DNA of 61,742 nt, filler included, from Hausera hauseri (lineage: Eukaryota), in the NCBI GenBank assembly GCA_046269625.1. It is 10 parts of 10 records of this genome, joined end to end, with 100 filler letters (N's around TTAATTAATTAA, not from the genome) between each part and the next. Parts side by side here need not be neighbours in the genome. Positions count along the whole stretch, not along the records: positions 47,562 to 57,280 come from JBJURY010302166.1; positions 57,381 to 61,742 come from JBJURY010617220.1; 8 more parts are not named here. The stretch is one strand, 5' to 3'. Shown piece by piece: positions 1 through 61,742 of this stretch. The notes beneath the pieces are model-generated. The model ran no database searches. It was given only the letters and a program-made list of their open reading frames with translations, and had not been told where the DNA came from. A program made the translations under genes and the position numbers. Position 1 is the stretch's first letter, and every line of letters starts with the position of its first letter.

Positions 1-104
1 CTTTCTCTGGGATTTGGCTCCAACTTATAACTATGGTAGGGTTTAATTCTAACTATTCGGGTGTAACTTCCGTGTGACTAGTATTTAAAATTAGCGGCTT
101 CGGC

Positions 105-239
105 CCGGCATACTGGACATGTGGTCTTTCCATTATCTAGCGTCCATTTCTCCAGGCAGTCTCGACAAAACTTGTGTCTGCAATATGGATTATTTAATAC
201 TACATATCCTTGCTTCAGGTTCCCTTCACATACTGGACA
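105..239 (-). CDS. C3HC4 RING finger (putative E3 ubiquitin ligase domain)
   Basis: CPVC-x15-CRHKFCRDC-x3-W-x8-CPVCR. Confidence 0.92.
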
Positions 240-1260
240 CTCGTCTTCTTCTTTTGCCCATTTCTCATCATCTAAATCGAATCGTGATGTGATCTCTATG
301 GGTTCTGCTGTCAAACCGTCTTCCTCTTGATATAAGTAAGCGTCTATTCTCTTTTGCTTCGGGTTTATCGAGCTTTTCTTAGGATCGCATCCAACGGCTA
401 TTGGGGCCCAATTGCTGTTAGTATCTCGATCTAAATCGGGAACTTCACCAGCCGATCGATATTTTTGGTACTGTTTCTTTAGTAGTAGCTTAACTGATTT
501 GTCCACCGGGACTAAGATTTTACCACTCCGTTTAGATTGAAATATTGGGGCAATGTATTTTCCGATTTTTGGATTTTCCCAGACATACGTGTTCTCGTAA
601 ACCTGTAGGCAAGCAATAGTTTGACAAAAAACATTGCTTCTTTAATCTTCTGCCTACTATAGTACTCAGTGACTACTAACATCCTGGGGTAATCTGCCGT
701 AGTAACATAATGAACGTTTTCCGTGGATGTCTTTTTTCGTAATACGTTTATTTCTGTTACTTGTTCTTTCCGTTGGCTTGGTTTTTCCGTATACTTCTCA
801 ATACGGGACTGCGTATTTAGTTTTGAAGGTTTTTCTGCCGGTTGTTTTGATTTTGGATCTTTTCTATCTGACCTGTGTTCTTCCTTTAGCCCCTTTTCTC
901 CTTCTTTATTTTTCTTCTTGAATAAATAATCGGAAAAGGAGGTTTTTCTCTTTGTTGGTTTCCCGGTTTCGGTTTCTGAATTTCCATGTTTTTCTTCTAT
1001 GTATTTCCGAGAAACTTCTGGTATCTTAAATAAACTATTATCCGCTGTAGCGCCATTACTTGTACTGGGTTTTTCATCCATCCGTATCTTATTTTCCTTT
1101 TTCTCCGTTCTTAATCCTTGTATAGTTATTTGGTAGTTCCATTCTGGTTTGATCTCGATATTTTTGGGTGGAGAGTATAGGCGAACATGTTTACGGTATC
1201 GTGTGCTGAGTCTTTTGGATTTTGGGAAATTTCGTAAGTTTTGTGCAGGGTTGCTGGGAA

Positions 1261-1780
1261 TCCATTCATGTTCCCACTCTAATCCAGCATTTATATCCCT
1301 TAGATGTTGGGATCTCTGATTTGCAGTTAGCACTCTGCTTATTTTTATATTTCCCCCGGTCATGGCCTCTACCATTAATTTAAAACGGCCTTCCATGATT
1401 AGTGGTATATTACTCTTTTTTTCTTCTACCTTAATTCCCACTTGTCACATAATAGTTGGGTATGTTTCTATCTCTCTCACTCCGGTTATATAAGTTACCG
1501 GTATGGCTAGTTTCTTCATTATCCTCTCTACTTAATACCCCACTAAGACGTATCCACAGAGGCATTGAGCTACTTCTTGCTGCACTAACTTGACATCTTT
1601 TCCATGATTCAATTGCTCTTTTTTAATTCCAGTAACTTCTGAGTAAGTTTCAAGCACTTTCCGTCTTCGGTTAATGATTTCCGAATAGACCTCGGCCCCG
1701 TCTTCTTCTCGGATGGATATTTCGATTGCAATGTAATTTCCTTTTTCTCCTTCCCCATAATTTATCGCGGCAATCCTGAG
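1261..1780 (-). CDS. REX4/ISG20-like DEDDh exonuclease domain, catalytically degenerate
   Basis: VYSEIINRRRKVLETYSEVTGIKKEQLNHGKDVKLVQQEVAQCLCGYVLVGY follows the REX4/ISG20 pattern (..VxDYRTxVSGIxxxxLxxGxxxxxVQxEVAxxLxGRILVGH); the ExoI DCE motif is replaced by AINY. Confidence 0.7.
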
Positions 1781-2435
1781 ATTTTTTTCATCAGCCACCA
1801 GTCTGAACGAGTGCAAGTGGGTATCTTGTTCCTCCTTTGTGGGCCTTTGCCTAAACTTTCAGGGTGGTAACGGTATAAGTATTTCTTCTTCTTCTGTTGT
1901 TTCGATCATCATTTTTACCGGCAAGGCAGCTACGCGAAATTCTAACTCGTAATTGTATAAGTTTCTACTGTTGAATACAAATGTACTAAACCGACTTTGT
2001 CTTCCTTGGAAGGAATCCCATTTCTGATCCTTTAGTCGATGGTATATCTCCCCGTCTGCCAAGTGCACATAAATCTTCTGTTCCTTCTCTGGTTGGTATT
2101 GAGCGATTGGTTTGAAAGGGTATGCCCTAGCATCTTTATCTTCCCTCCATGCGTACAAATATACTGCTCGTGCCTCCTTGGTTGTTCCTTTTAGTCCATT
2201 CGGTATTTCGTCAACCTTCCCGTATTGTACGAAACTTTTTCCTTGTATTTTTATGTTTATTTGCCTATAGACGGCCTTTGAATTTGGGATCCGCACTGTT
2301 ACGTAGTTCTGTAGGAATTCGTCGATACTAGGTCGACTGGTCATTTCATCCATGTGGATCCTAAGTCGGCTCGGATCTTCCTTGGCGTCGATACTAATTC
2401 GGCTTGGTTCCATCTGTGTCTGAGTACTTACCAAT

Positions 2436-2462
2436 CTGAACAAAAGAACATAAAGGTTAATC
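2436..2462 (-). promoter_or_regulatory. Candidate splice acceptor for the accessory ORF
   Basis: Minus strand reads gaTTAACctttatgttcttttgttCAG|attg: branch-like TTAAC, pyrimidine tract and CAG just upstream of the ORF's first ATG (2413). Confidence 0.45.
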
Positions 2463-2556
2463 TTAAAACAAAGGGTGGTTTTAAACCCAAACCAATTCTT
2501 TGTTTGATGACAGAATAACCTGATCTGTAATTGTCAGGTTATTTTATCATATGGAT

Positions 2557-3859
2557 CTACGGGGTCTCCAATTCCCTTAGTTCCCATTCTGAATTTTTAT
2601 GACGCTTAGAATAACATTTTTTGGTGACTAGTCGAAAAATCGCAATTAATATAATGAGAACAAATGCTGAAAGTACGGAAATGGATACAATTGGTAGTGT
2701 GGTTAATCTTAGTGGTGCTTGAGTAGTAATTGATGTTGTGGTTTCGTCGTTTATATCTTCACGTGTATGCGGTTTCGCATGATTTTCTTCTAGAGTATGC
2801 AGTGTAATTGTTTGGGTTGCTTTATTCTCTGCAGACACTTGTATTATGTATTCAGGTTGTGGTTTTAGTAAATTGCACTCTGTTTGATAAGTATTTTTAA
2901 ATAGAGTTACCATTTGCTTATTATATGTGGTCCTCCTGTTTTTCCTCCACAGAGAACACGATTTTATATCGTTTGGCCGAAAATTTGATAGTTATATTTT
3001 CCAACTCTACTTTATGTACGTCGTTTGTCGTAAGAGCTCGATCAGCTTTATTAGTCGTAATTTCCACTGAAATTTTCTAAATCTTATTTTCCGGATAGTA
3101 AGTTCGTAATTGTATGCTTGTCTTATTTGGTCGCACCTCGTATAAGGCAAATCTTATTCTCAATTCTTGGTTCACCGGCAGTTTGCAGCAGGGGTGCTTT
3201 ACACCTGCGCGAATAGAGCAATATTCTATTTCCGGGGTCGGTCCAGTGGTTGCTTTAAATCTAATACTAATTTCTCGGCTATCTGTTAATTTTATCCGGG
3301 TATCTACTTGGACGCATTGTCTTGCCTTGTTAACCACAATTCTCTGAATATTCTTGTCTAATAATTTTATATCTGGATCCGTATATTGCAGCATTTCGTT
3401 CAGTTCTATTTCACGGCTTTTTACTCATGTAGGGATAATTAATTGAAATGGTGGCTTTAATTCATAAATTTTAGATAAACTTGGTACGTACAGTTGATAA
3501 GTAAGGTTGTAGGCACATCGGAAATCTACGTCGCAACATTTCGTATACTTTCCGTATTCAAAATCACAGTTTTTGGTTTCCTCCGTATTTATATTGTCCA
3601 AGAAAATTTTGAATCTTCCAAAATCATAATGTGATTTCTGCACCCTGAACCCGACGCATGTGGAGTTTGGCAAATAGAAATGAATTGACATTGATTGTAA
3701 TAATCTTTGAATTTTTCCGATTGATCGTTTTCTTTCTGCAACAAATCTGTCGTGCCACTTTTTTGCTTGTGTTCTCGGAATGTAAGAAGCAATTAACGAT
3801 AGTGCTAAAACTATCTGAACATATAAGATTGGTCTGGTTACTATTGACGAAGTTTTCAC
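2557..3859 (-). pseudogene. Predicted type-I membrane glycoprotein (~430 aa) in frame with the integrase C-terminus; fragmented into ORFs 3425-3859, 3077-3394 and 2557-2913
   Basis: Signal-like ILYVQIVLALSLIASYIPRTQA; two repeats CV...C-x9-CC...LY; FN3-like LKPQPEYIIQVSAEN; Thr-rich stalk; TM IVSISVLSAFVLIILIAIF; basic tail; sequons NST, NLT, NKT, NIT. Confidence 0.7.
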
Positions 3860-3894
3860 CTCGCGTTGGCGTAAATTATAACGTTTGTTGGGTC

Positions 3895-4880
3895 ATATTT
3901 CTGTCTTGACAGCTCTTTGTACTGATATGACTTCTTTTCCATTTTTGTTAATATATACTGTAGTTGGCGTAACCCTTGTAACTTCGTACGGTCCTCTACC
4001 TGTACGAGTCAATTTTAATGAAGTGCCTTTTATGGCTACTGGATAATGTACATAAACCCAATTTTTTTGTTCTATATAATGTGGTTTCGCTTTCTTATAA
4101 TATTGCTTCTTAAACTGTTCCTGATATTCTTGGGATAGTTCTTTGGCGATTCCTCAACACTTTTGCAACCGCGTTTGCAACACCTCTGCGAAATTCTGTT
4201 CTAGATCTTCGGAATTAACTGTGTATGGCTTCATTCCTAAGTCCGTGGGCAACACGGCTTCACCTCCGTACATCATAAAAATGGCGTAAATCCTGTCGCT
4301 GGATGTGGTGTGGTATTAATTGCAAATTGAGTTCCCTCCAAAAACTCGTCCCAGTCCTTTTGGTCCTTAGCCACTACTGTAGATATTATATGTATGACGG
4401 TAGCATTCATCCGTTCGACCATTTCATTACATTGAGGATGATATGCAGTAGTTGTTAATCGTTCAGTTTCAAATATTTGGTGATTTTCTCAAATAATTCA
4501 CTGGTAAAATTTCTTCCTCGATCCGTGAGTATCTGGTCTGGGGATCCATATCGACAAATAATTCTTCATACAACGGCTTCTGCTAAAGTTTCAGCTTTCT
4601 GATCTATCAGTGCTATCAATTCGACAAAATGAGTTAGGCGATCGGTGCATGTCAAGATATACTTATTGTTCTTGTGAGTCGTAGGAAGAGGTCCTACTAT
4701 ATCCATCGACATGGCCTGCATGGGCCTATCGGGCACATTGATTGGTTTTAATTCAGCCCTGTAGTTTTTTGTCTTTTTCTGTTTAGTTGTACACACTTCA
4801 CAGGCATTCACCCGATTTTTCACGTCAATATAGATACTAGGCCAAAAATATTTATTCATTACTCTTTCTAATGTTTCCTT
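3895..4880 (-). pseudogene. Gypsy integrase (HHCC zinc finger, DDE core, GPY/F), interrupted by stops and frameshifts
   Basis: H..GH at the end of the 4881 ORF, then YFWP..CEVC, MDIVGPLP, YGSPDQILTDRGRNFTS, TTAYHPQCNEMVER, GPYEV. Confidence 0.93.
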
Positions 4881-5939
4881 CTAAGACATGTGTCCGGCTA
4901 AGTATGAGTCATGTTCTGATATCAGCACTTCGGTTAGTAAACTTTTTGCAATAACCATTAGCTGTCTTCTCTTTCTTTCGTAATATAAAATATCCTCATC
5001 ACTCTTGTCATTTATGATGCGATATTTGTGTCCATGTCTACGTAAATGCTCCTTTAACTGTCGTCCTTTCGGCTCGACATACCTTTTTGCAAATTCTATA
5101 ATCTGCTGGATGACCTTATCCTTTGTTTGTTCTGCTGAAATTTTAATGGTCTTCTCAATCGTTAACGCGAGTTGACGGTCTATCATTTCCTCAAGTTGAT
5201 TTTTCTTCATTACGGTGATTGCGCTTGTTTTAGTCTTTAATCTCGATAGTGCATCAGCGTCTACATGTTTATTTCCTGGCTTATACTGGAATTCAATATT
5301 ATATCTGGAGATTTCTTTGATCCATCTATTAAGTCTGCACACCGGGTTATTGGCTAGACCCTTTAAGGTCGTAACGGCCTTGTGGTCAGTGACAATTATA
5401 ATTTTCTGCCCGTAAACATAAACGTTAAAATGTCGAAGTGCTTCCTTTACCGCTAGAGTTTCTAATTCGGTAACAGAATAATTTTTCTCAGCTTTTTTCA
5501 AAGAACGTCCTCCATAAGAAATTGGATGTTTTAATTCTTCATCCTCTCTTTTCTGTGCTAATTCATATCCAATACCTTCCTTACTGGCGTCTGTTTCAAT
5601 TATAAGCGGTAAGGTAAAATCTGGATATCGCAAAACGGGTTCATTTGTTAATGTTTTCTTCATCTCATCAAAAGCCTTCTGCTTAACGTCTGTCCATTTC
5701 CATTTGATTCCTTTCTTAAGTAAGCGATATAGAGGTGCATTAATCTTTGAATTATCTGGTACATAGGTTGCGTAATAACCACAGAGTCCCAACCAGTGTC
5801 TTAACTCTTTCTGATTTTGCGGTTCCATGCAATCTGATATTTTGTTCAATAATGATTTATCAGGTTTCGATCCTCCTTCTCCAACTATATGGCCAAGGTA
5901 GGATACGGCATTTTGAGCCCATTTGCATTTCTTCGGATT
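4881..5939 (-). pseudogene. pol: Gypsy pol: RT C-terminus/connection and RNase H
   Basis: KKCKWAQNAVSYLGHIV, WLGLCGYY, PVLRYPDF, IIETDAS, NYSVTELETLAV, VTDHKA, YKPGNKHVDADALSR; a frameshift lies near 5850. Confidence 0.95.
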
Positions 5940-45889: not shown

Positions 45890-47461
45890 TCATCTCATAG
45901 AAAATTGACAATATAACATTAGAATCAGACAGACCGACATAAAGTTAACAAAACCAATATAAACACATTTAATGTACCCACAGACCACTGCAGGAATTCT
46001 TTCCTCCTCTTGAATTACAATATTCTTCTTCACATTGACATCGAACTTCTTCAACCCGACAGTTCAGTCTTTTGTTTGGACTGTTTAATATATAGCTCAG
46101 TCAAAAACCAGTTCGTACTCGAAGGACAGTAATTCACGCTGCTGCATGAGATTCAGTTCTTCACCAAACCACACACTGGATCTGGATATCTGGGAACAGA
46201 CTGGACTACAGGTAAGACTTCAACAGCATACACAAGACTGGAACTGGACTCTCTTCAGACCGAAATCTGGAACGTGGTTAGACAGTAAGAAACATCTGGA
46301 GCATCTTCAAACAATGACATACTCAAACTGGACTGGAAACTCGAACAATGTATTCTCTGGTGACATGACGACAGAATTGACAAAATAGAACTGGAAACCA
46401 GGTTAACTGACAACTTATGATTGTTATCTCTCGATGGGTGTCAGACTTCAATTAATGGTTGGCTTCAACACAAACATGGATGACGAAGAGAATAACAGCT
46501 GAGAATCTTGGGTTTTGAACGTGGCTGAATGTCAACCTGATCTGGAACAATTTGACAAAACGCCTCTCTTTGAACATAAAGTTATAGCATTGATTCTGAA
46601 TAAACTCTTCTGACAGTTTCATAAAGACATTACTAGTAGACATATACTTCTCATAATATCAATCTCCTTTTTCTTAAATCTCTCTCCAAAATAACGACAG
46701 TTGCTTTAGACAATTCGTAACGTACCTCTACTGTGTACTTCTCTCTGCACAGTCAAAATATCGATTCTCTTTCAACAAAGACTATATTTTACACGTTGAA
46801 TTTTCCAGCAATACATTTTCTCCTCAACCGCTGGCTATTTATAAAATTCTCACATAAGACCAATTGCTTCAATAGTATTGTTTACAGCCCAGAAACAACC
46901 AACCTGACCTAAATCTGGTTTTCGGGTACGTTACATTCACCCGTAACGAGCCTGATGCGTGACGAACTGATCACACACGTTCAGCTAAACATGACCCTGT
47001 TTATACATGTTTTGTCACAGCTGAATTCTTCACACAGCAGACCATTCAAAAATTTACAACACTGTTCTGTTAAGCATACTCACGAAACTTCTTGATGCTA
47101 ATATGTAGATTCCCCGTTTCAAACATAAACGCTGCATCAAACCGATGATTGGGAACACTCCTCAGAAATCTACGAGAAAACACTTTTGTAAATTGACGAA
47201 ACACAACCGTATTTTCGTGTCAGTCTCCCACATAGAGACTTTCTTGTTCAAATGTATACAAGAAATCAACTGCTTGAATCAAAAACGACTTGTTTCTTTC
47301 ACTGCTACCAGCCAAGTCTCGGTGTCGACCTACCTGGTCGAAAATCAACAACCAACTGTCTTCTTAATTCATTTCGCCAGCCCAAAAAAATGGCTTCCGT
47401 CTTTTCACATGGTCAGCGTGAAAAACGTGCAAAGCGTAAACTGGTGCGTTCAGCTTTGAGC
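45890..47461. repeat. Copy 2 of the ~1.57-kb direct repeat (runs into the contig end)
   Basis: Colinear with 42456-44033. Confidence 0.9.
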
Positions 47462-47561: not shown

Positions 47562-47688
47562 TCTGTCCATTTCCATTTAATTCCCTTTTTAAGTAGGCGA
47601 TAAAGGGGTGCATTTATTCTTGAATTATCTGGCACATAAGTTGCATAATATCCGCATAGTTCTAGTCAATGCCTTAACTCTTTCTGTT
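47562..47688 (-). pseudogene. RT connection segment joined directly to the post-protease region (RT core deleted)
   Basis: QKELRH*LELCGYYATYVPDNSRINAPLYRLLKKGIKWKWT, near-identical to C1 5690-5815. Confidence 0.88.
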
Positions 47689-47805
47689 GTATTTGTGCAT
47701 AAATTATTAACTCTGTTCTAGGTGGAATGTTCTCATCTACTGGTATCCACAATTTTCCAAATTTCCTATCCTTAGCCTTTTTTACGTCTTTATTTGGTCT
47801 AATTT

Positions 47806-48294
47806 CTAATTTCCTGTTTGTAAATTAATTGCTATATTTGGTAGTCTTTTCAGTAGATCACATCCTAAAACTACGTCGTCAGTTAGTTGTTCCATAACTG
47901 CAAATTCGTGACAGAAAAACTGTCCAGCAATTTGAACTTCTGGATTCCATTTAAACATCGGTTTCGACATTTGGCCAAAAGCTCCTGTACTTCCTGGATC
48001 TTTTGAAGATGATGGGTATAATTGTCTTCTCAACGTTTGAGGTATTGATTCATTTTTGATGTAGGACATCTCGGAACCTGTATCGATTAATGCATAAATT
48101 TCCAAATCTTTAATAGTAATTTTGGTGAAGGGTCTTCCTTCTATTACTGTTCCGAAAGAGTTTGATGCAGCTTTTGGGCGTTTAACTGCCGATATTTTAT
48201 GTCCATTGATTCGGATTTCTGGGGAGGAAATCATATTTTCTGACAATTGTTTTAGTTCTCCGTTTGGATATAATTCATTGTTTTCTATATTCAA
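47806..48294 (-). CDS. Retroviral-type aspartic protease
   Basis: IYALIDTGSEMSYI ... DDVVLGCDLL. Confidence 0.93.
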   Translation of the reverse strand: MNIENNELYPNGELKQLSENMISSPEIRINGHKISAVKRPKAASNSFGTVIEGRPFTKITIKDLEIYALIDTGSEMSYIKNESIPQTLRRQLYPSSSKDPGSTGAFGQMSKPMFKWNPEVQIAGQFFCHEFAVMEQLTDDVVLGCDLLKRLPNIAINLQTGN

Positions 48295-48789
48295 TACTTC
48301 CGCTTCCTGTGTACTAATTAATGGTTCTCGGTTGTTAGTATGTTATATATTCTGAAAAGTTTTTAACCTTGGATTTTCCCAGAGTAGTAGTCTAGTTTCT
48401 ATATTTCGGGGTTCTCTCGGGAAATATAACATTCTGGGGTCGTCGAGGGGCCGTCGATAACACATTTTCCGTAGGACTCCGTAACGTTTCGTTCCTTCAT
48501 AAGGGTCTTCTAAACTAATTATCCTTTTATAGATTTCCATCTGATATGAATTTATGGATCGTTTGTCACAGTCTTCATAGACCGGGGTGGTAGTTGGTAG
48601 CATAGCCAATGGTGCTTTAATGATCGAATACGTTTTATGCCTGTTGGTTCCTGAAAGTACTTCTCCTCCCTTAGGCTCATCATCATCTGAATTATTTCGT
48701 CGTATATTAGGTTTTGTAAGTTTCCGTTTATACAATAACATAGGCCTTCCTTTTCGTTTACGATTATAATATCCGACATAGCGTTCCAC

Positions 48790-50590
48790 GTCCGATTCTC
48801 TTCGTATGATTTTAAGAATTTCCCAAAAGGCGTTATGATAGCAGTCAGTATTTTACATGAAAATCCGGTCAACGTAAATATTTCGTACCCGTTAATTATT
48901 GCTGGGATGACTGCCTTATTCATTTGTATTAAAAAATATATCGCTAAGAATCCATATACGGCTTGTCCAAAAATCAAAAATCTTCCCAAAATTTTGCAGA
49001 GTATTTGGGTAGTTAATCGCTGATAATGGTTTACTACGGGCAAGGATTCCCATTTAGCTTGATGTCGAGTATCGTCTACTACAGAGGCCATGGCTCGATT
49101 TAATTTGTGTGTCCGCTGTCGCGGAAAAGCGAGGAATTGTCTGAAAGCTTCGCTTTCCTTAGGTCTATATATGCCTTTTAACGAGGTATCTTGGAATTTG
49201 TCGTCTGTAATTCCTTTTGCAAGATTTGTTCCTGTTAATTTGTTTGGAGCGGCAGTAATACCCCCATTTGGTAAACTAACCCAATCCGTTTCACTTCGTC
49301 TAAAAATGGGTTCTCCTAGGCTTGCTTTACAATCTTTAAGGATCGTCGGTTCCGGTGCATTGTCTAATAGCACTCTAGTGAGTGGCATAGCTAACCTTGG
49401 ACTATTTTGGTAAATAAAGGGAAGTTCTTGCATGCAGCGTTTTCCTTCAACGTTAATTGGCACATCTCTTTTCTCACATTTGTAAGTTAATAGTACTTCA
49501 CCAGTAATACGACCAAAAATTCCTTCTCTCATGGGAATTATTGGCATAAATAAAAGCCATTTTTGTCCTCATGATTTCCATGTCCAATTTACAATCATTA
49601 TTCCTACTTGCGCTTTGTAATAGAAGTAATCGTCTCTGTTTTTCAGATAGTCCTCAATTCGGATATCTTGCGTTTCTAACTTGTAAGTCTTTAAATTTAT
49701 CTCCGTCTCCGCGACAAAAATGCTTTGTAATTGATGGCGAACATCACTACCTGGCAACGTGAAATCAATTCTTTCTTAATGAATTTTAGTCCATGTTAAT
49801 TGGAAACTAATATCGTACGTGTATGATGCTCCAGAATGTCCTCGCGTTTTCTTGAACTGATGATGGAATTGTCTACATATCGTTTTCTGGTAGTTTCGTT
49901 AAATTTCAATTCTCTAATTTTGATAAAATTACAGCTTTTCCCAGGGCGGTTGCCATATTATAACCGAACTTCTAAAAGCACAAGTTCCGTCTTGTATATG
50001 ACATTTTCGATTTTTGGTATATAGCTTGGTAACACTGTGGAACATCGTTTTCTGTGCTCGCATTTCTGATTCATAGAAATCTACAACCACAACGTTTGCC
50101 TCTAATCCTTTTCCAGTGTCATATTCGGCTCCATTGCATTGTCCATTGTGCATATCCAATCTTCCGACTCCTATTTTGTATGCTCTTATTATTTTTCCCG
50201 GTTGCGTCTCTATTTCCATGCTATCCCAATTTAACTTCCCGGTCTCTCTGGTCTGCTTGCAATGCTGATGTTCCAAATTCATTGGTATTGGAGGAGTCGT
50301 TGGTTTAATTATCGGTGAATGTCCGTGCATTAGCCCACAGTAAAAAATGCTACGAGATCGTCTCAACATACATTCCATTCCGTCTAATGAAATCAATTTT
50401 TGTTGCTGGTATAAAAAATAATTTTTCTCTATTGTTTCCAATTTGTGCGGTTTGCGTCTTCGCACGATTCGAGATCCATCAACGAATACTTCTGTCCGAG
50501 CTTAAACCTGTCGCAATCGTAAATAGTAACGGCACCCATTTGTTTAACCAACATCATTATAGTGAGTAAGCTAATTAGCCAGTTGGACTC
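48790..50590 (-). pseudogene. env: Envelope glycoprotein, chuvirus-G/gB-like (class III fusogen), copy 1
   Basis: Internal signal WLISLLTIMMLVKQMGA, then YDC..YSLMDLESC, CMLRRSRSIFYCGLMHGHS, GQCNGAEY, GEVLLTYKC, RCMQELP, KGIYRPKESEAFRQFLAFP; TM FLIFGQAVYGFLAIYFLI. Confidence 0.82.
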
Positions 50591-53500
50591 ACTTTTTCTA
50601 TTATTACTATCCGTGATTGCCGGATTCCGTAAAATTTCTCCCAATCAATTTTTACTGGCTCTTTTGTCTTCTTCCCTATCAAATAATTTTGACCAATTTA
50701 TTTTACTGGGTAGTTTCCTAGCGGCCTTCCGGGCTAAACTTGTAGCCCGATTGAACTCATTTTCTCGGTTTGGATTTGTCATAATGGCTAAATATAACAT
50801 TATTTTTCTTAATTCTTTCTTTGTATTTTGTACCATTATTTTTTCAACTACTGTTTCATCATTTAGATTACCTTTCGATAACTTGAAACGTGTATTCTTC
50901 ATGATCTTGGCTGCATTAAAAATTGCTTTTTCTTTATCGTCTAATGTATCACCTCAAGGACCCGAATAATTTACGATTCGTATCAAATTCCTTAATAATT
51001 CGTTTAGTTCCTCGTTACCCGTACTGAAGGTGGGGATCGACAATTGTCGCAATTCTTTAATCAATTCTTCATTATAATCGACATCTCGGACTATTTTAGG
51101 TCTACCTACTGGGCGTCTTTGCTTCTGAGCGGTAATCGATGTTTTGTTCAGTGGAACCAAATTTTTATAATATTGTTCGTTATCTTCATGCGTTTGTAAA
51201 TATTCGAAGTACATTGCCGCATCTTGGACTCCCATAATTTGTCCTACGCATTGTTCTGCCTTGGCTTTACGCGTAGCTTCTTCCTTAGTCTGTTCGTTGG
51301 CTATTGTTACCACTAGTTGGTTTGTCTCATTAGGTATAATCCCGACATTTATTAGTTGTTCTAAATCATCTAATATTCCATCTCTCAAATAAAATCTATA
51401 GTTTAATTCCTTCGATCCTCCATTATTCATCAACCACTCTCTTACGTCCTTTACATAGGAATAAGTGGTTAACTCACATTCTTTTTCGTCCATCCATTAT
51501 GATAATATTTTCATTTTCATTATCCGCTCGGGTTTAGCCGTCAAGATTTTAGCGTATATTTTTATCAGTAATTTCGGCACAGTACTATAAATTGTGTTCT
51601 CAGTAGATAATTTAGTCAGAGTTGGAATAAGTTTTCTCAATCTACTCTCGTTAATATTTACGTCAATTAATTTAATTAAATCCTTTTCTGTTAGCACCGA
51701 ATCCAAAAGCATCTCCACGTCAATTCTCTTACTTCGTAGATCTGTTTCTATTTCGTTCAATTGTATTGAAATCACCGGGTTTTCATTATTTATCGTATCT
51801 AGGTAAATATCCCATTCTGGATCATGTCCAACTCCTGGAAGTCCGTAATCTATTAACGTTGTACTTGTTCTCTGTACATTTTCGCGGATTTCTTTTAATC
51901 TGGGTTGTATTTCTTTCATTTGTGTGGTACGAAAACCCACTCCGTTTCCCTCAAGCATATTGGATTTGCTTTAGTAGATCACCAAGTTCACTAGAATTAA
52001 TAAGTCCTTTTTGGTGATAATCGGTTAGTTCGATAATTACATATTTTTGCAATCTTTGTACGAACTCTACCTTGTTTTTAATTTCGGATTCGGTAAAAAC
52101 GTATTTGTTCCGGTAGATTTCGAGTTCTTTTACTAACTCATCTAACCTTGTTGCTCTTTGTTTAGTCTTAATGCATGTTTCGTCCATCTGTCTTATCCTA
52201 GGTATCAGTTGTCTCCTCTTCTCATCATTAATTTCTGCCATCTATACTAGCAGAAAGACTAGTTCATACATCTCATTTATGACTCTTGAGTAGGGGTCCA
52301 ATGCATCTAGTAGCTTCTTTACGACTTGGATTCTTCAAAACTGAGGTATTGATTGTTTCTTATTTTGTCAATTCGATATGATAATTCTGATCTGTCTCGA
52401 ACATCCATTCTTGTAGTCTATGCAAAAATTTTATTGTTGCTGTTAAGGCGACTATATGTGCTGGACAAATGTCTAGGGTTTCGATGTCTTGGATTGAAAT
52501 CTCATTGATATGTCTTTCTGTTAAATGTTGGACTCCTTCTAACCAGAGATTTCTTAGTCTTGAATAAAAATTACAAGTCATATTCTGCTTTGTATAAAAT
52601 TGGTTTCTTCAATCATTTTATAAATTTCTTCCATTATCGTCATTTCTTGCTTCTTCTTCATGAAGTTTAGTGGTCGTAAAGCTTCAAATCGGTTTCGGAT
52701 GTTTATTTCTGCTAGTATCGTATCTAAATTACGAGCATGTTCTTCTAATTGTTTCTTTACCGATGGTTCACTTTCCGGAAATTCTTTCTTTCGATCTTCC
52801 ACTAATTTGCTTAATAGCATTATAGTTCAGACCATTTCGATAGATGATTAGCAATTATTTGCTTTGCCAGTATAGCTCTATCTAACATGTTATATGCATC
52901 CTTTAACTCGTCGTCTAAACCCTTTATAAATTTCATAATTCGGCTAATATATTGGAACTCATCTTTATATTCATCAAACTCTATGATACACGACTTTACT
53001 ACATATTGGGTTTCTTCATGGTTTGGAGTCATGATCCGGTTCTTCAGTTTGCAAATTTGCACCCGTTTTTCATTTTTAACTTTGATTCAGTCCTCTAAAT
53101 TCGTATACCGTTTCGGTGAGTCAAAAGCAGTTCTTACCATTTCCATCAATGGAGGAATATCTATTGGGTCTATGCCCAATATTTCTAAATCAATGTTACC
53201 TCGTTTGCTGATCGGTTTTTCTCTAAGTCGATTAATCATTGCATAACGAATTTCGTGTACCATACGTTTTAAGTTACGGACTACTTGTTTTAGCTTCGGA
53301 TTCTCTTCTAGCATGGACAGTAACGTCTGTGCTTTAGTGACTTTCACGTCAATACTCTCTTCATTTTTGTTCCATCCTTCCGAAAATTCAACCACACTTT
53401 TAATCCATGATTCTAATTTGTGTTTCCATTTTAATAATGTTTCGGTAGATATTTCTTTGGGTTATTCTGACTCTACTGTTCCATTGAGCTTCCCTTCGCT

Positions 53501-54280
53501 GTACAGTTTTAGCTTTTATATAACCTCTCGACATACTGTTGGTCTTTTCCCGATATTTCTGCTTGTTTGCTAATTTGTCTGAGTCTTTCTAAATTTCGCT
53601 GTAATAATTCCGGGTCGTGACACCTAATTCTCATTTTCTTCAACTCATCGGCATTTTTCCAAGAATGTCTAACTTTCCACCTCTTTGGATTAAATCGTCC
53701 TGATTATTAATTTTTTCCGTTTCTTCCTCATTAATGGGTAGTGGGCAGATCTCGTTGATTTCGTTAAGTGACTCGGTAGATCCTTTTATCTCGGTAGGGG
53801 TGATTTGGTTATTTTCGGTTGTACTTAAACTAAGTTCTAGTTTGCTTCCTAGGTTGACGTTAGTATTCTTTACTTCTTCTGTTCTAGTTAGTTGTGAGCG
53901 TGAGTGACTTCTACGTCTTGTTTTTAGAGAAGGACTACGACCCATATTTTTCGTAATTTTAAGTATCTATGGTTCCATGAAGTCTCTTTCTGCTAGAGCA
54001 TCATCTGTCGGCTTATCTACCTTTTTGATAGTGAACTCAGGCTCTGTATCTAAATCGACTTCCGTCGAAGTTCCTGGTTTCTCTCCTATTTTATTGCTTG
54101 TCAGAATACTCTTTTTTCGCGTCATATCAGTTCGTTTGAGTGCTATAGCACGTTCGTATTCCGTTTCCGGTTCTATCAACCCGTGGTACACTTCTAATAA
54201 CCTTAGCTTATTTTCATATTCCCTCCTAACCGTTAAAATCTGTGGGTTAATAGTTTCCGGCTGGGGGACTAAGAATTTCT
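50590..54280 (-). pseudogene. ~1100-1200-aa unknown, charged and probably helical region between the Gag zinc knuckle and the glycoprotein
   Basis: Ten abutting ORF fragments; the C-terminal part is conserved in C10 (61145-61742). Confidence 0.7.
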
Positions 54281-54281
54281 G

Positions 54282-55442
54282 CTAATCTTGTATATCGATT
54301 ATAGTACCTGTATCTCGGCGCGCTGCGTATTTAGCTTCTAAGTTCTCATTAATTTTGAATATACTAGTTTTACTAGGTTCGGTTAAAGAAACACTACGCA
54401 GATTTGGACATGACTCTTCAATATGGCCTTCTTTACCACACGTAAAACAGATAAAGGTTTCCTTTTCTGCCGACTCTTTGTCCACCATCTTCGTTCACTG
54501 GTGATTTAGACCTATTGGAGCTCCTGTTATATCGATTAGATGAACCTTGTATGCCTTCTATGCTTCGCCGACTATTATTAGTTCGATTGTCATCATGGTG
54601 ATTTTGAAAATTTAGGTCTCTATAGTTTCCTTGGTTTCTATTGACATTGAAATTTGACCTATTCGTATTCCGTTCGTTTGGGAAGTAGTTATTCCGACTA
54701 TTCCTATAATTATTATTACTATTTCTATCCCCATAATTTTTATTAGTAGCAAATCTTCTCTTCCGCGGTTATCGACCCGATTCCTATCGCTACGATCATT
54801 GGTTCTATCGTTCCTCTCGTTGTGATTGACATACCCATCAAGTGCCATTTCTAAGTCTTGGGCTAGTCGTAATGTCCCTTCGAAAATTTCTGGTCTGGCT
54901 AGAATCAATTGTTTAACTAAATTTCGGGACCAGATACCATTAATAAATTGAGTCGTCATCATGACGTCTAAGTCTGGAGGGGTTGCCTTCTCTGCGGCAT
55001 CCCGTTCTGCGTCCGATTTGGCTTTGGCTACATGGGCTATCCTCAGTGTGCTCATATAAATATTTGCAAGTTTCTTCAACGCAAACGCAAACTGGGTTAC
55101 CGATTCACTCTTTTGTTGCGTTCTATTCTGAAATGCCATAAGCTTCTGTTGTGGCGTAACTTTCGGCAATAATTTACGGTTTAATGCTCCTACTAAGGAG
55201 GACAAAGTTTTCTTTTCCTCATTCGTGAGTTCGCTGTAAGCATCATCGGCTAGATTTTTCAGATATAACGACAAGCGTTTGATCATTACTTCAGGGGTTA
55301 AGCTAGCACCTTCTGCGTGTAATTTGTAAGTTCTTAAAAATTCATTTAGTCCATCTGGATCACCATCGTATGGTGGCAGGTTCAGAGAATCAAAAGTGAA
55401 AATGTCTAACTTCTGCGCTACTAGTTGATTATCTGCTTCCAT
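54282..55442 (-). pseudogene. gag: Gag: retrotransposon capsid domain, N/R-rich linker and CCHC zinc knuckle
   Basis: LPPYDGDP..FL..Y, YLKNLADDAY, QQKSESVTQFAFALKKLA, QFINGI; CFTCGKEGHIEESC; frameshifts around the N/R-rich linker. Confidence 0.9.
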
Positions 55443-55796
55443 GTGATTAATTTCAGAGTTAGTTTTGTTGATTTTATGTTTCTCAAGTGGGATTTTAAAT
55501 TGCTTATTTTGTTCAGTGACATCTATCTTATTTCTATTCTCTGAATTTGAACTTCTATCTGTCTTGGTAAATATATCAACGTGTTTGACGTATAGGTGAA
55601 ATATCCCTTAACACAAGGTTGGCCTTTGATTTATCAATATAGGTTCTCAAATTTTATGTTATTTATCCCCGTTTTAAGCCTATAAACCCAATTTAGTTTT
55701 CCGTTCCAACTATATCAGTTATTCGATATAGGTGGCGCTGTTCGCCGGTGTGTGTTTATTTAACTCTCTATAGTAAAGTCTAGAGAGGTACAAACT

Positions 55797-55814
55797 GTCC
55801 GGCTAGGGTTGCCA
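55797..55814 (-). promoter_or_regulatory. Primer-binding site TGGCAACCCTAGCCGGAC (possibly tRNA-Arg)
   Basis: ...ACA-TTT-TGG junction, complementary to a tRNA 3' end ...GGTTGCCA. The tRNA identity is unverified. Confidence 0.7.
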
Positions 55815-55817
55815 AAA

Positions 55818-57198
55818 TGTTATAGTGTGGGTTGGCCCTTATCGTCTCCCGCCATAACAGAAATTATGCGAAGTTTTAATCGTTTATATGTTAGGATTAT
55901 TCGATCTCGAATAATCAGTTTGTACCTTATGAACGTTGAATAAATTATCGACTAATATGCAGGTACTGCGTGTCGGAGATGAATGTCTCAGATTAATTCG
56001 TTCTGTACTTATCTAGTGATTTTACTCTTGATTTTAAACTTAATGTGAGTCCAATCGGTTTTAAGAAGCGATGAGAAATTATAAATCAATTACACAGAAA
56101 AATTTTATTTAACTCAAAATTACCAAGTTTCTAACAATAACCACAATATCGAAGATCAATGTCTATGAATTTTTGGTTCAACCAATTCAGCAAGGTCTTT
56201 AATTCACCCACAGGTAAATCACGGAAAATCAACTTTAATCAAAGTCTGATAACTATGTTTTTCTTGTCCTTTATATAGTCTCGCTGCAACAATAATTTTT
56301 CCTATACTTGCATTAATTTAGATATTTTCTTGTTTTCAATTACTCGCCCACGTTTTTTATTAGTTTTTCTGACAGTTTAATCCATTTCCAGTCTGATGTT
56401 TCATTCCATTTGCGATCATAAATCATTAAATTTCTGGTTTTAATTATGAAATATTAATTCAATCATGCTTTCTGGTTACGAATTCCTCAATTATTCAATT
56501 TTATATACAACGGCTAATTTAGTAATTTCTACCTAAACATGACAGCTGCTACATTATTTACAAGCTTGCTGCATTGCTGACAGCTAATACACTATTTACA
56601 ACATTTGTAAACGTCAAAATTAGATTATGGAATTTTGTACTGAGATGGGTCTGTGAGGAATAATCGTTCGGTATCACTTTTATAAATTGAGTGAGTTCGG
56701 TAGTATTGAATGAGTGATTCGATTGTGCTGAATACTTTCCGACCGACGTGGAGTTCATTGTTTTTAAGGTAAACTTGAAAATCTTGAAAATGTCCCTGCT
56801 GTAGTTAAATGTCAGAAAACAGATAATATTCCAGGTGCAAAGGTTTCAGTCTTTGATTATGTAATCGGAGCTTTACAAAAGAGCGAGTTGAATGAACTGA
56901 GAGAACTTATTTTGTAACGTGTTATGCTTGTCGCAGATAATACTTCTGGTCCTAAGTAAAAGCTTAAGTTGACGACTGACATTTGAACAGGTCTTGATGA
57001 ATTTCATGAATTGTTATTTGCGTTTGATGAATTTCTTTGTAACGTTGCGATATTTTTACTATTGGTACCACTGGTATTTAAGTGACTAAGTATATAAAAT
57101 TTGAAATTTTCAAAATACGATTTTTCACTGTCATTTTATTCGCATTGGACAGTTCGGCGATTTTTAGCAGATGTGTTGTGAAAAACGTCAGTGTAACA
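55818..57198 (-). repeat. Candidate 5' LTR (~1.38 kb)
   Basis: Minus strand TGTTACACTG...CACTATAACA (8/10 inverted termini); TATATAAAG at ~56268-56277; AATAAA at ~56104-56109; ends 3 nt before the PBS. The outer boundary is tentative. Confidence 0.65.
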
Positions 57199-57380
57199 TA
57201 ATGCACAAGTGATAATCAAGGTAGAGAGTCTCTTGATTGTTCAAAACGCTCTTTCTGATTTTTGGACTGTGGTGGTGCCCNNNNNNNNNNNNNNNNNNNN
57301 NNNNNNNNNNNNNNNNNNNNNNNNTTAATTAATTAANNNNNNNNNNNNNNNNNNNNNNNNNNNNNNNNNNNNNNNNNNNN

Positions 57381-57830
57381 AAATGTCCTTCTTCTGTTTT
57401 TGATGCTATCATCACGTCATCTAAGTACGCGAAAGCATGATCAAGTCCCATGAGCATCTTATTCATCATTCTAGTAAAGATAGCTGGTCCGGTTGTGATA
57501 CCGAAGGGCATAACATTAAATTCGTATACGCCATCGTGCGTTTTAAATGCTGTTTTATATCGGTCTTCTTCTATTTCCACTTGCCAGTATCCTGATTGTA
57601 AGTCGAGAGTGGTAAACCATTTTGCTCCTGATAGTCTATCTAAAACGTCTTTCATCATCAGCGTGTTCAATGCCCGATAATCTATACAAAACCTGTGTTT
57701 TGTAGTCCCTTTCTTAACCATAAGTATAGGCGAGTACCATGATCGGTAGCTTGGCCGAATTATGTCGGCCTTTAACATTCGCTCTACTTTAGTTATCTCC
57801 GGTCTCAATGAATGAGGAGGCGGGTACCAC
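57381..57830 (-). pseudogene. pol: Gypsy reverse transcriptase core (truncated at the contig end)
   Basis: SPILMVKK..RFCIDYRALN..FTTLDLQSGYWQV..KTAFKT.DG.YEFNVMPFG..YLDD; the usual YPLP segment is deleted. Confidence 0.95.
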
Positions 57831-57835
57831 TTTGG

Positions 57836-58038
57836 CATTTTTTGTTCTATATCGATCTCGTCAATTGAGCCTGGTTTCTTCTTGAGCCTTGCTCTACCTG
57901 TCTTCTTTGTTTTGCGCAATTTGTTTTGTGCATTTTTTGTTCTAGATCGATCTCGTCAATTGAGCCTGGTTTCTTCCTTAATGGAATAGTTAATCTTAGA
58001 GCCTTTGCTCTACCTGTCTTCTTTGTTTTGCGCAATTT
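57836..58038. repeat. Local tandem duplication (~90-105 bp, 2 copies) upstream of RT
   Basis: cattttttgttcta.atcgatctcgtcaattgagcctggtttcttc...gctctacctgtcttctttgttttgcgcaatt occurs twice. Confidence 0.9.
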
Positions 58039-58104
58039 TGCGCTTCTTGAGAGAATTTAGTTTCAACATAAGGCGGAAATTCAGCGCACTTGTATGGTTT
58101 CTCT

Positions 58105-58730
58105 TCAATTGTTACCGCCGATACTCTGACCTAGAGTAGTGTTAGCGTGCAATCGTATAGGAGTTGGTGAACTGTTCACTAATCTGATGGGTATTCGTCC
58201 CGTCACTACTCTACATAGAATATTACTAAGCATGAGATTTGGTTTGAAATATACCGGTAGATCTTTATCTTGGCGAATCTGTGCAAAAATTATCATTTTA
58301 GTTCTAGACGGAATGTCCTCATCTACTGGAATCCATACTTCGCCTGATTTCCTTTTCTTTATTACTTTCGTCCCTTTTATTGGTCCGAGCTCAATTAATT
58401 TTCCATTATGCACATCAATTGCCATACCTGATATCTGTTTTAATACGTCACAACCCAGTACTACATCATCTGTTAATTGGTCCATTACTGCAAATTTATG
58501 TGAAAATGCTTGGCCCATCGTATAAACGGTTGCAGTCCACTTAAATTTTGACTTCGATATTTGCCCAAATGTTCCTACGCTACCTGGATCCGACGATGCG
58601 GGTGGACATAACTAGTCCCACAATGTGGTTGGTATTGATTCGTATTTTATAAACGATTTTTCTGATCCTGTGTCGATTAGCGCATACACCTCCCAATCTT
58701 CTATGTGTATTTTAGCGAAAGGTCTTCCTT
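58105..58730 (-). pseudogene. Aspartic protease and post-protease beta-rich domain, copy 2
   Basis: WEVYALIDTGSEKSFI (~58650-58695), DDVVLGCDVL, IPIRLVNSSPTPIRLHANTTLG. Confidence 0.88.
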
Positions 58731-59271
58731 CTGCTACTGTTCCACAGCAATTCGGCACTATCTTGGACCGTTTTATAGTGGAGACACTGTGTCTATTTAT
58801 CGTTATTTCTGGTAATTAAATGATACCTGTCTTAATTGTCTTAATTCCCCATTTGGGTACAAATCGTTATTTGTTATTTCCGTGACGCGGTTGTCAATGA
58901 GCGGTTCTTGAGGTAAGGGACCTGAGATTGAGCATAACCTCGGGTTCTCCCAGATCGTTGATTTCGATTCTATGTGCCGAGGTATCCTTTTCGAGTATAA
59001 TATTCCGTGGTCGTTTTCTGTTGGTCCGTTGTTGATAACGTTCATTTTGCGTAATACTCCATATTGTTTTTTTTTCCATAAGGGTCTTCATAATCCATGG
59101 GTTTTCGGTAGATATCAGATCTATAAGATATGACTGACTTTTGATCGCAGTCCTCGTAAATCGGCGCAGTTGGTGGCATGATGGGTATTGGTACGTATGT
59201 TCTATGTAACTTTATTCTAAAATTTCATTCTCCTCCCTTAGGCTCGTCATCATCTGAGTCATCTTTCCGCA

Positions 59272-61210
59272 TTATTGTCTTTTATTTTTGCGTTTATTAA
59301 GAATTGAGGGTCTTCCCCTTTGTTTGCGATTGTAATATTCAACATGACGTTCTACAGCATTTTTCCATCGATTTTCATCGTATGCTTTAAACATTTTTCC
59401 AAAAGGTGTGATAATTGCAGTTAAAATCTTACAGAAGAATCCTGTCAATGTGAATATTTCATATCTGTTTATAGCAGCTTGGATTACGGCTTTATTCAAT
59501 TGTACTAAGAAGTAGATGGCTAAGAATCCCGATGCAGTTTATCCAAAAATTAAAAATCTTCCCCAAATCTTATAAAATATTTTTGAAGTCACTCTCTGGT
59601 AATGATTAGCGCCAAGGAGAGATTCCATTTAGCCTGATATCGTGTGTCATCTACAACCGAGGCCATGGCTAGGTTTAATTTGTGCATTTGCTGTCGTGTA
59701 AAAGCGAGAAACTGTCTAAATGCTTCAATCTCTTTGGGCCTACATATGCCTTTTGATGAAGTGTCCTGAAATTTATCGTCCGTAATTCCTTTCGCAAGAT
59801 TTGTTCCCGTTAGTTTACTTGGGGTAGTAGTAATACCTCCATTTGGTATGCTGACCCAGTCTGTTTCACGTCGCCTAAACATGGGTTCTCCCAAACTCGC
59901 TTAACAATTTTTAAGGATAGTAAGTTGGGTTGCATTATCTAATAATACTGCCGTCAATGGTGTAGCTAATCTGGGAATGTTTTGATAGACAACCGGAAGT
60001 TCCTGTATGCAACGTTTTTCTTCTACATTGATGGGTACATCTTTCTTTCCACATTCATAAGTTAGTAATACTTCACCTGTAACTAGACCGAAAATTCCTT
60101 TTCTCATAGGAATTATTGGAGAAGCCAGTTCTGGGTTGGTATATATAAGAGCCAGTTTCGATCTCATGATCTCTGTATCCAATTTACAGTCATTCGTTAT
60201 CATCTTGTGGTACAACTGAGTTATCCCAGTTTGTCCTTTGTAATAGAAATAATCGTCTCTATTCTTCACGTAGTCCTCAATCCTGATATCTTGTGTTTCT
60301 AACTGGTAAGTTCTCGCATTTATGTCAGTTTCTGCTACGAAGAATGCTTTGTAGTTAATAGCAAACATTACCACATCACAACGTGACATCATTTCCTTCT
60401 TAATAAACTTTAGTCCATGTTGATCGGAGATTAGTATGGTGGGCGTAGGATATTCTAATACATCCTCGCGTGTCCTTGAATTGGTATCTAGTTTATCCAC
60501 ATATTTTTTCCCTGTGGTCTCAATAAACTTGAATTCTTTTATTTTAATAAAATTACAGCTTCTTCCTGAGGGAAATCCCATATTATAACCGAGCTTGTAA
60601 AAGCACAGGTTCCATCTTGTACATGACATTTCTGATTTTCCGTGTATAATTTGGTGACGCTATGAAACATTACTTTTTGTGCTCTCATCTCTGATTCATA
60701 GAAATCCACTACTACTATATTTGGTTCTATCCCTTTCCCGGTATCATATTCAGCTCCACTACAGTGTCCAGTATGCATGTCTAACTTTCCTGCTACCACT
60801 TTGTATGCCCTGATTATTTTACCAACTTGAATTTCTAATTCCATATTGTCCCATTGTTCTCTTCTGGTTTCTATAGCCTGTTTACAATGATGTCGTTCCA
60901 AGTTCATGGGAATTGGAGGATATGTCGGTTTGATTATGGAAGAATATCCGTGTATTAATCCACAGTGAAAAATACTGCGAGACCGTCGTAACATATATTC
61001 CATTCCGTCTAGCGATATCAGTTCTTGTTGCTGATATAAGAAGTAATTCTTCTCTCTTGTTTCTAACTTGTGTGGTCTGGCATCTTCACACGTTTCCAGA
61101 TCCATTAGAGAATATCTTTGACACATCTTGAATTTATCACAGTCTTATATAGTGACTGCTCCTAGCTGTTTTACTAACATCATTATTTTTAACAAATTGA
61201 CTAAGCAGTT
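59272..61210 (-). pseudogene. env: Envelope glycoprotein, chuvirus-G/gB-like, copy 2
   Basis: Colinear homolog of copy 1: RYSLMDLETC, SIFHCGLIHG, GHCSGAEY, NDCKLDTEIMRSKLAL..NPELA..GEVLLTYEC, RCIQELPV. Confidence 0.82.
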
Positions 61211-61742
61211 GGATTCATTACCTCTATTTAAAAAAATATTTCGTATCATATCTTCCAACTTATTGGCCCATTTTTCATTTTCCTTTTTTTCAAATAATTT
61301 AGTCCACTTTATTTCTTTGGGCACCCTTTTCGCAGCTTTTCTAGCTAATCCAATTGTCTTTTCAAATTTGTTTTGCCGGAGAGGATTAGTTCTCACCACC
61401 AAGTATATCAAGACTTTCCTTAATTCTTCTGTCGTATTGTCTGTCATAATTTTGTCAATCACTATTTCGTCAGGGAAGGTGCTTTTAGATCATTTGAATC
61501 GTGAAGTTTTCATGGTCCGTTCTATATTATATATTATTCTTTCTTTTTCGGACAGTATGTCGCCTTGGAGTCCGGTATAGTTTACTATCCTAATTTAATC
61601 TCTCATTCGTTCTATCAATTCTTCGTTATCTGAGCTCGGAATAGGTACTGTAAGTTGTCTCAGTTCCCTAATCAAATCTGCATCATAATTTACTTCTTTT
61701 ATTTTTCTTGGTCTTCGGACTGGCCGTTTTGGTTTTACTGGT

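Follow-up and report, generated by a model that had tools for sequence, protein, structure and literature searches.

Decayed Ty3/gypsy retroelement copies in Hausera hauseri that carry an envelope gene of chuvirus/gB type between gag and pol

The giant gypsy-like LTR elements of planarians termed Burro, or GYPSM1, occur in many copies, and their ORF1 is described as one 4,873-residue frame in which an env related to mononegavirus fusion glycoproteins lies between gag and pol (Arkhipova and Yushenova 2019, PMC6431247). 'Errantiviruses' of GAG-ENV-POL order with an ENV of HSV/gB type were catalogued in Nematoda, Bryozoa and Platyhelminthes by Chary and Hayashi (eLife 2026, PMC13524379); no statement that gag, env and pol share one frame was found in the available part of that account. 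According to the same account, nematode endogenous retroviruses described by Sacco et al. 2022 also have a flipped env/pol order. Atlas virus of the Belpaoviridae is described as making one Gag-Pol-Env polyprotein of 2,828 residues (PMC9094657). The sequence-only reading of the DNA analyzed here had stated that in retroviruses, errantiviruses and env-bearing BEL/Pao elements env lies 3′ of pol, usually as a separate or spliced ORF; Atlas is a further exception to the second part of this statement, its env being 3′ but within one polyprotein. The nematode elements reportedly have a continuous gag-env-pro-pol frame and are said to be restricted to nematodes.

The stretch of H. hauseri DNA analyzed (assembly GCA_046269625.1), referred to as the window, is 61,742 nucleotides long and consists of ten contigs and the spacers between them. 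Two of the contigs, C9 (47562-57280) and C10 (57381-61742), carry decayed copies of a highly repeated Ty3/gypsy LTR element, on the minus strand in both (Table 1). The copies are 69% (about 70%) identical across 3,535 bases. Altogether 16,005 contig pieces align to C9, and 13,742 of these are less than 95% alike, i.e. there are many diverged copies; no intact copy of the family was seen. Chary and Hayashi kept only intact elements (PMC13524379); C9 and C10 are decayed and poorer material than those published.

The order read from the two contigs is gag, zinc knuckle, X, chuvirus/gB-type env, linker, protease and RT. The sequence-only reading had reported an X-glycoprotein-protease order in both contigs, gag and the zinc knuckle upstream in C9 and a Gypsy RT core in C10, and the Pfam domains and the frame map agree with this (DYRALN at 57682 and YLDD at 57427 for the RT core). 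No Pfam gag family matched C9 gag, but it has no stop (z -5.7 against shuffles), and tblastn with two relatives as queries matched it at E 1e-14 (P0004) and E 6e-8 (P0011). The RT core of C9 has been lost internally, and the post-protease piece joins the RT thumb directly. Since C9 overlaps a third contig, C1 (47562-47686 against 5689-5813, 83% identical), C10 and C1 could be joined, and the result is protease-RT-RNase H-integrase, the Ty3/gypsy order, its RT motifs being of gypsy type. C1 likely represents a third copy of the family, of which it would hold the 3′ half. At the other end the LTR stays a candidate: a possible inverted LTR start at 56600 is not significant, no second LTR was found within the window, and no tRNA matching the PBS-like 18-mer was identified. 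The beta-rich stretch of C10 behind the protease is dUTPase-like by position only; no dUTPase family in Pfam matched this conserved protease-RT spacer.

Table 1. Features of the retroelement copies, with positions along the window
Feature	Position	Strand	Evidence
C1 further coding-like stretch ending in RING finger (239-102)	81..2556	-	z -8.5; PF13639 E 2.6e-10
C1 predicted second membrane protein behind integrase	2557..3899	-	hydropathy 1.95 and 3.04; coding-like z -5.4
C1 RT thumb, RNase H, integrase	3900..5939	-	PF17919, PF17917, PF17921, PF00665
C9 short post-protease piece, then RT-thumb piece from 47683	47562..47811	-	C1 overlap, motif places
C9 aspartyl protease, DTGS at 48084	47812..48222	-	PF00077 E 6.5e-7
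C9 basic/charged linker from env to protease, coding	48230..48800	-	pN against pS; z -4.1
C9 second, weaker hydrophobic stretch behind anchor	48881-48825	-	
C9 predicted membrane anchor	48921..48977	-	hydropathy
C9 env ectodomain, chuvirus/gB-type	48978..50521	-	PF24664 E 2.4e-10 and 1.6e-25 (best)
C9 internal hydrophobic stretch, signal-like, sharing the frame of X and env	50522..50578	-	hydropathy
C9 region X, a decayed coding sequence of about 1,270 codons	50579..54407	-	stop-depleted on element strand
C9 CCHC zinc knuckle	54408..54449	-	PF00098 E 9.7e-5, above cut-off
C9 gag, frame open over the capsid region, Met 55442 as candidate start	54770..55607	-	tblastn of relatives
C9 candidate 3′ end of 5′ LTR (55818), then PBS-like 18-mer starting TGG (55814)	55797..55818	-	sequence reading
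C10 post-protease beta-rich stretch, short tandem duplication (D15/D19), Ty3/gypsy RT core	57381..58401	-	RVT_1 E 6e-22
C10 linker, then aspartyl protease with DTGS (58674)	58402..59374	-	PF00077 E 9.2e-8
C10 signal-like stretch, env ectodomain, predicted anchor (59553-59497), second hydrophobic stretch	59375..61204	-	PF24664 E 1.9e-17 (best)
C10 final part of X, in frame with signal	61205..61742	-	identity to C9, pN/pS

The envelope family PF24664 (Monjiviricetes fusion glycoprotein) was found in two of three env pieces scanned from C9 and in two of four from C10. A structural model of the C10 env (pLDDT 87) was compared by Foldseek, and all 38 rows listed were class III fusogens, 36 of them herpesvirus gB and two thogotovirus Gp, every match being weak (best E 3.5e-3, none at E 0.001). 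Sequence searches of the PDB with the relatives P0006 and P0011 returned no fusion protein. In the C9 ectodomain the reading frame shifts several times and meets one stop.

The lesions of C9 and C10 are complementary. Three places where the C10 frame had been said to continue across a lesion of C9 were all recovered in the frame map: ORF 61145-61462 across the stop at 50645 (X into the signal), ORF 59272-59499 across the frameshift at ~48790 (behind the transmembrane stretch into the linker) and ORF 58803-59045 across the stop at 48343 (linker toward the protease). The shared stretch holds four stops in C9 and seven in C10, and none of the eleven faces a stop in the other copy. Both copies shift frame at one homologous spot of the ectodomain (C9 ~49940, C10 ~60563), by different amounts. 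In all 12 correctly framed C9-C10 segments pN is far below pS; in the linker, which is included, pN is 0.11-0.32 and pS 0.70-0.81, and at the end of X, where amino-acid identity is 49%, the values are 0.27 and 0.80. From gag to protease no non-coding gap was seen (z -3.5 to -7.9, against -0.5 upstream of gag), and X is depleted of stops on the element strand of C9 (z -4.6 to -7.9). Continuity of gag with X was read in a single copy, C9, because C10 begins within X.

Relatives were collected as phmmer matches to env, of which there were 36; the false match P0031 was dropped, leaving 35. Their env is only 22-34% identical to the window copies. Ten relatives reach the anchor: eight run on into the protease motif and four into RT-RNase H-integrase, while P0006 and P0021 end soon after the anchor. 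A CCHC knuckle precedes env in five of the 35 (P0004, P0005, P0011, P0013 and P0017), all of which pass from knuckle into env without a stop, and P0013 and P0017 also run into RT-RNase H-integrase. The best match, P0004, pairs with both gag and env of C9 in one frame. In one cluster the element is present as a single 4,844-residue frame and also as two shorter proteins. Word-indexed protein searches with env gave no match, which is weak evidence, since HMMER over representatives found the 36. A phage scan gave no matching locus and a metagenome scan one short locus; no named Burro sequence was among the matches.

PF24664 was absent from the precomputed domains of the pol-search matches (120 of 151 matches listed), and these were therefore used as background for trees. 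In the careful trees, which kept 37 of 92 and 35 of 122 rows and in which P0051 was counted with the env group only for having a contig as long as that of P0006, the RT grouped weakly with relatives bearing env in the polyprotein (support 70/74). C1 received no supported placement, and its best blastp scores go to env-bearing relatives.

Because unbroken relatives keep the same order in one frame, it is likely that the active form of the element made a single Gag-X-Env-PR-RT-RNaseH-integrase polyprotein of the Burro or GAG-ENV-POL kind, C9 and C10 being dead copies of it. The sequence-only reading had proposed such a polyprotein, and this part is upheld by the constraint at the junctions, the absence of a non-coding gap and the one-frame relatives. 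Its claim that the layout is unknown in LTR retroelements is refuted. The placement of env between gag and pol is real but is known from flatworms, roundworms and moss animals: env lies in frame between gag and pol in Burro/GYPSM1, the GAG-ENV-POL order has been catalogued in three phyla, and an earlier cataloguing of the architecture is what the reading itself had named as a refutation. C9 and C10 represent a further family of a known but little-studied design in which env is part of the polyprotein.

Compared with Burro as described (PMC6431247), the element shares a CCHC-bearing Gag, a long accessory region, a spacer after the protease and RT-RNase H-integrase, as well as an in-frame env related to mononegavirus fusion glycoproteins, the in-frame position being read here from complementary breaks, coding constraint and unbroken relatives. 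Burro has two or three knuckles whereas C9 shows one. Burro exceeds 25 kb and has a dUTPase-like spacer; the present element is known from contigs of 4-10 kb and has a conserved beta-rich spacer at that place. With the elements of Chary and Hayashi, by their description, it shares a Ty3/gypsy pol, a gB/chuvirus-type env, the gag-env-pol order, multiple copies and an ectodomain with a signal or TM in front and a TM behind; with those of Sacco et al. 2022, as cited there, a metavirus pol preceded by a captured RNA-virus glycoprotein. Atlas is similar in that envelope proteins within the polyprotein are cut out as in an RNA virus, and differs in its BEL/Pao RT, class II phlebovirus-like env and C-terminal position of env (PMC9094657).

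Three other explanations were weighed against a single continuous polyprotein. The order could be the same with Pol, or Env-Pol, reached by programmed frameshift or read-through, most likely between gag and X, so that Gag is in excess. Most LTR elements do make Gag in excess, and one-to-one Gag and Pol would be unusual for them; C9 also has two frame changes between gag and the knuckle and several in X, a part that C10 does not cover. We nevertheless regard this as unlikely, since the five relatives named above pass from knuckle to env without a stop, Burro ORF1 is a single frame, and from X to the protease no junction break is common to both copies. Less likely still is a continuous frame from which env was also, or mainly, expressed through a spliced or internally started message, so that ER threading of the entire polyprotein would not be required. 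Retroviruses and insect errantiviruses as a rule splice their env message; in C10 an ATG lies in frame 15 codons upstream of the signal stretch, and five of 14 relatives have a Met among the 28-55 residues that precede env. However, the ATG is missing from C9, no in-frame ATG before the signal being common to the two copies, and neither has a pyrimidine-rich AG acceptor in the 240 bases before the signal. Even with an internal start, env would continue into Pol, there being no stop behind the anchor. Finally, chuvirus glycoprotein insertions beside gypsy fragments are described as common in arthropods (PMC10084718), but that env is such a separate insertion, whether a nested element or an endogenous gene of chuvirus type, copied passively within an ordinary gypsy is very improbable and largely refuted, because both env junctions lie at the same place, under coding constraint, in copies 30% apart, the env borders have neither a non-coding gap nor a terminal repeat, and unbroken relatives carry env fused in frame.

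For the single polyprotein, we infer threading through the ER by an internal signal and one anchor. The signal-like stretch of C9 has a hydropathy of 1.82 over 19 residues and stands at the same place in unbroken relatives; such a stretch precedes env in 14 of 14 retroelement-type relatives inspected. By hydropathy only, an ectodomain lies between it and the predicted anchor in both copies, and one glycosylation sequon is present per copy, at different places. On a rough scale, the first stretch behind the ectodomain outscored the second as a membrane helix in all 12 cases, and the predicted anchor itself scores marginally. In C9 and C10 the hydropathy of the second stretch (1.52-1.71) is close to that of the first (1.75); if the second also spans, two passes would place Pol in the lumen.

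Translation would begin at gag. The hydrophobic stretch in front of env would serve as an internal signal, where cleavage by host signal peptidase would leave Gag-X in the cytosol and start the lumenal ectodomain. Transfer would be halted at the first stretch behind the ectodomain; the second, which has a central basic residue and cysteine, would run along the membrane on its cytosolic side. Linker, protease, RT and integrase would stay in the cytosol, to be excised by the protease that the element encodes. If this topology is true, Gag, Env and Pol would be produced one to one, with host signal peptidase used as in RNA viruses, and would be held at one membrane, from which enveloped particles could bud. 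Release of the second protein with signal and anchor, predicted behind the integrase of C1, would follow the same route.

The remaining points of interest are the long X and this second membrane protein. No Pfam family matched X above cut-off, and single-sequence folding of its last 513 codons gave pLDDT 32. The MATH, BIR, ankyrin, SUMO-like and Bcl-2-like domains of Burro (PMC6431247, as far as described) were not detected in X by Pfam; decay may hide them. A Bcl-2-like X, prompted by a BH2-like motif and four relatives, was rejected as unproven: a profile of the relatives' Bcl-2-like domain scored 13.6 on X, within the range of shuffled sequences (maximum 18.4).

The predicted membrane protein of C1 consists of a signal-like stretch (3844), a beta-rich ectodomain, a Thr-rich stalk, an anchor (2691) and a short tail; it matched no Pfam family. 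A signal-plus-anchor protein also follows the integrase in four of four env-bearing relatives, but a profile of their post-integrase ectodomains did not match C1 (E 1.2), and only the layout is common. The available part of the Burro account (PMC6431247) does not mention such a protein, and a literature search for a membrane protein behind integrase found nothing relevant, which is not proof of absence. Only tentatively would we set this lineage apart as a distinct branch, with a gB-type fusogen in the middle and a type I attachment partner behind the integrase, both in one polyprotein with four ER crossings and an X of 1,270 residues. Retroelement envelopes of gB type are presumed to have no such attachment partner. 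How these envelopes achieve entry without the herpesvirus partner glycoproteins is given as an open question by Chary and Hayashi (PMC13524379), on which the post-integrase protein would bear if it is an attachment factor. The C1 stretch that ends in the RING finger is covered by many diverged contigs.

Two of the ten contigs in the window, which have spacers between them, carry copies of one retroelement family (C9 and C10). The two copies aligned over 3,535 bases with 69% identity. Pfam analysis gave the order CCHC knuckle, PF24664 (chuvirus-type fusion glycoprotein), aspartyl protease and, in C10, RVT_1; the C9 gag matched gag of database relatives (E 1e-14). This order, together with a frame-by-frame comparison of C9 and C10, confirmed the layout proposed in the sequence-only reading, in which the envelope gene (env) lies between gag and pol. 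The three read-throughs claimed there, with C10 frames open across C9 lesions, were also present in that comparison. They lie between X (the long region separating knuckle and env) and the signal, between the membrane anchor and the linker, and between linker and protease.

Within the stretch common to both copies, C9 has 4 stops and C10 has 7. At nine of these 11 the other copy reads sense, one lies opposite an alignment gap spanned by the C10 frame, and for the remaining stop the opposite C9 piece is open. A frame break was observed within the ectodomain at the same homologous spot in both copies (C9 ~49940, C10 ~60563), away from any domain junction and differing in size. Other contigs also vary in length at this spot, so the common break looks like two separate lesions.

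Features of the window
Feature	Position	Contig	Strand	Details
Element copy	47562-57280	C9	minus	
Element copy	57381-61742	C10	minus	
Short tandem duplication	57835-58038	C10		at RT start; 47 and 34 bases, 98-100% identity
Pol and downstream region	1-5939	C1	minus	RT thumb, RNase H, integrase, predicted second membrane protein, long coding-like stretch ending in RING finger
Harbinger-type transposon pair	8736-10099	C2		Myb/SANT PF13873 + DDE PF13359
Env-less gypsy element, unrelated, two copies	16287-18748; 35656-37863	C3; C7		78% identity over 856 bases
DUF3715 piece	29030-29578			E 3.6e-11
Ankyrin-repeat frame, intron-free	39471-41133			
Internal duplication, 1.6-kb	41573-47461	C8		89% identity

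Twelve correctly framed segments, the first at the end of X and the last in the post-protease spacer, with three linker pieces among them, gave pN of 0.11-0.32 between C9 and C10, far below pS (0.65 to saturated). Each segment of the C9 gag-to-protease stretch is depleted in stops relative to shuffles (z -3.5 to -7.9) and the stretch upstream of gag shows no such depletion (z -0.5); therefore env is flanked without a non-coding gap in C9. In run X1, 16,005 contig pieces aligned to C9, 13,742 of them less than 95% alike, and 14,148 aligned to C1, a depth that must not be taken as copy number. These sequences belong to a large, diverged repeat family. Over a candidate LTR interior (55818-56600) contig depth was 17-245, against thousands over gag or env; this stretch might simply be flank.

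A phmmer search for unbroken relatives used as its query the C10 frame that runs from the end of X through the signal into env, whose first third it includes. There were 36 matches, one of which, a false repeat protein, was set aside. PF24664 was found in all 22 of the other matches scanned (15 + 7), and env identity to the relatives was just 22-34%. The anchor is reached by 10 of the 35; eight of these ten continue stop-free into the protease motif and four as far as RT, RNase H and integrase. A CCHC pattern precedes env in five of the 35, and P0013 and P0017 have both this pattern and RT-RNase H-integrase behind env. P0040, a member of a cluster, is a single frame of 4,844 residues from env to beyond integrase. 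Against one frame, P0006 and P0021 end shortly past the anchor, and the P0040 cluster also contains two shorter proteins. P0013 is filed as a protein of a Flavobacteriaceae (bacterial metagenome) bin, where it is probably a contaminant. Several protease-like domains stand in tandem behind env in P0005, P0009, P0014, P0020 and P0040, and in P0018 a mitochondrial ribosomal L47 domain is fused to an env piece.

Given the coding constraint and the unbroken relatives, the C9/C10 family probably encoded one polyprotein, as the sequence-only reading had it. Its further claim, that this layout is not known in LTR retroelements, did not hold: the architecture is already catalogued. In Nematoda, Bryozoa and Platyhelminthes, Chary and Hayashi (2026, PMC13524379), building on Sacco et al. 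2022, describe GAG-ENV-POL elements whose env is gB-type; they report that these elements are not monophyletic. The C9/C10 family agrees with them in gene order and env type. Atlas virus is described as having a single Gag-Pol-Env polyprotein (PMC9094657). Burro works like the C9/C10 family, but its accessory domains were looked for here and not found, and for this reason the family is not filed as Burro.

The predicted model of the N-terminal ectodomain reached pLDDT 87 (34-row alignment). Every one of the 38 Foldseek matches listed is to herpesvirus gB or a thogotovirus glycoprotein, and all of them are weak (the best has E 3.5e-3). Taken with the PF24664 match, these hits to the predicted fold place env among the class III fusogens. 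Directly ahead of the ectodomain, both C9 and C10 have a hydrophobic stretch. The 14 retroelement-type proteins inspected have it too, 144 to 1,365 residues into the protein; in the chuvirus-like free protein P0029 it is N-terminal. Ahead of this signal-like stretch we found no in-frame ATG common to C9 and C10 and no acceptor-like AG in either. Two further hydrophobic stretches follow the ectodomain. On a rough scale the first of these outscored the second as a membrane helix in 12 of 12 sequences, and in all 12 the second contains a cysteine. Env would pass the membrane once, leaving Pol cytosolic; this is the weakest step of the reading, because in C9 and C10 these two stretches differ little in hydropathy.

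Region X comprises about 1,270 coding-like codons and matched no Pfam family above cut-off. Four relatives have a Bcl-2-like domain immediately ahead of env, as does Burro (PMC6431247). A Bcl-2-like reading of X was set aside as unproven: its match to the relatives' domain was no better than shuffles.

Comparison with 126 pol proteins gave top scores for the C10 RT against P0013 and P0040, and in a 35-row tree it grouped tentatively with the env-in-polyprotein relatives (support 70/74). The C1 pol also scored highest against such relatives; a 37-row tree gave it no firm placement, and a clade uniting it with them was not rejected (AU p 0.57). The RT core is missing from C9, whose terminal piece shares 83% identity with C1. 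From this identity and the C1 pol results, C1 is likely, though not certainly, the 3' half of the C9/C10 family.

Past the C1 integrase, the same frame, with one stop crossed, leads into a predicted signal-like stretch, beta-rich domain, Thr-rich stalk and anchor, which the RING-ended coding-like sequence follows. Many diverged contigs cover C1 throughout. The integrase end could be located in 59 of the 126 pol proteins; two hydrophobic stretches follow it in 4/4 env-bearing relatives versus 1/55 others, many of which stop close to integrase or where the contig ends. The relatives' post-integrase ectodomains share their layout with that of C1, with no homology found by profile comparison.

Among the other contigs, decayed frames in C4 (20924-24366) resemble a Polinton/adintovirus-type DNA polymerase; the three pieces scanned had no Pfam match. 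The Harbinger-type pair looks fish-like, and the sample may mix fish and invertebrate DNA.
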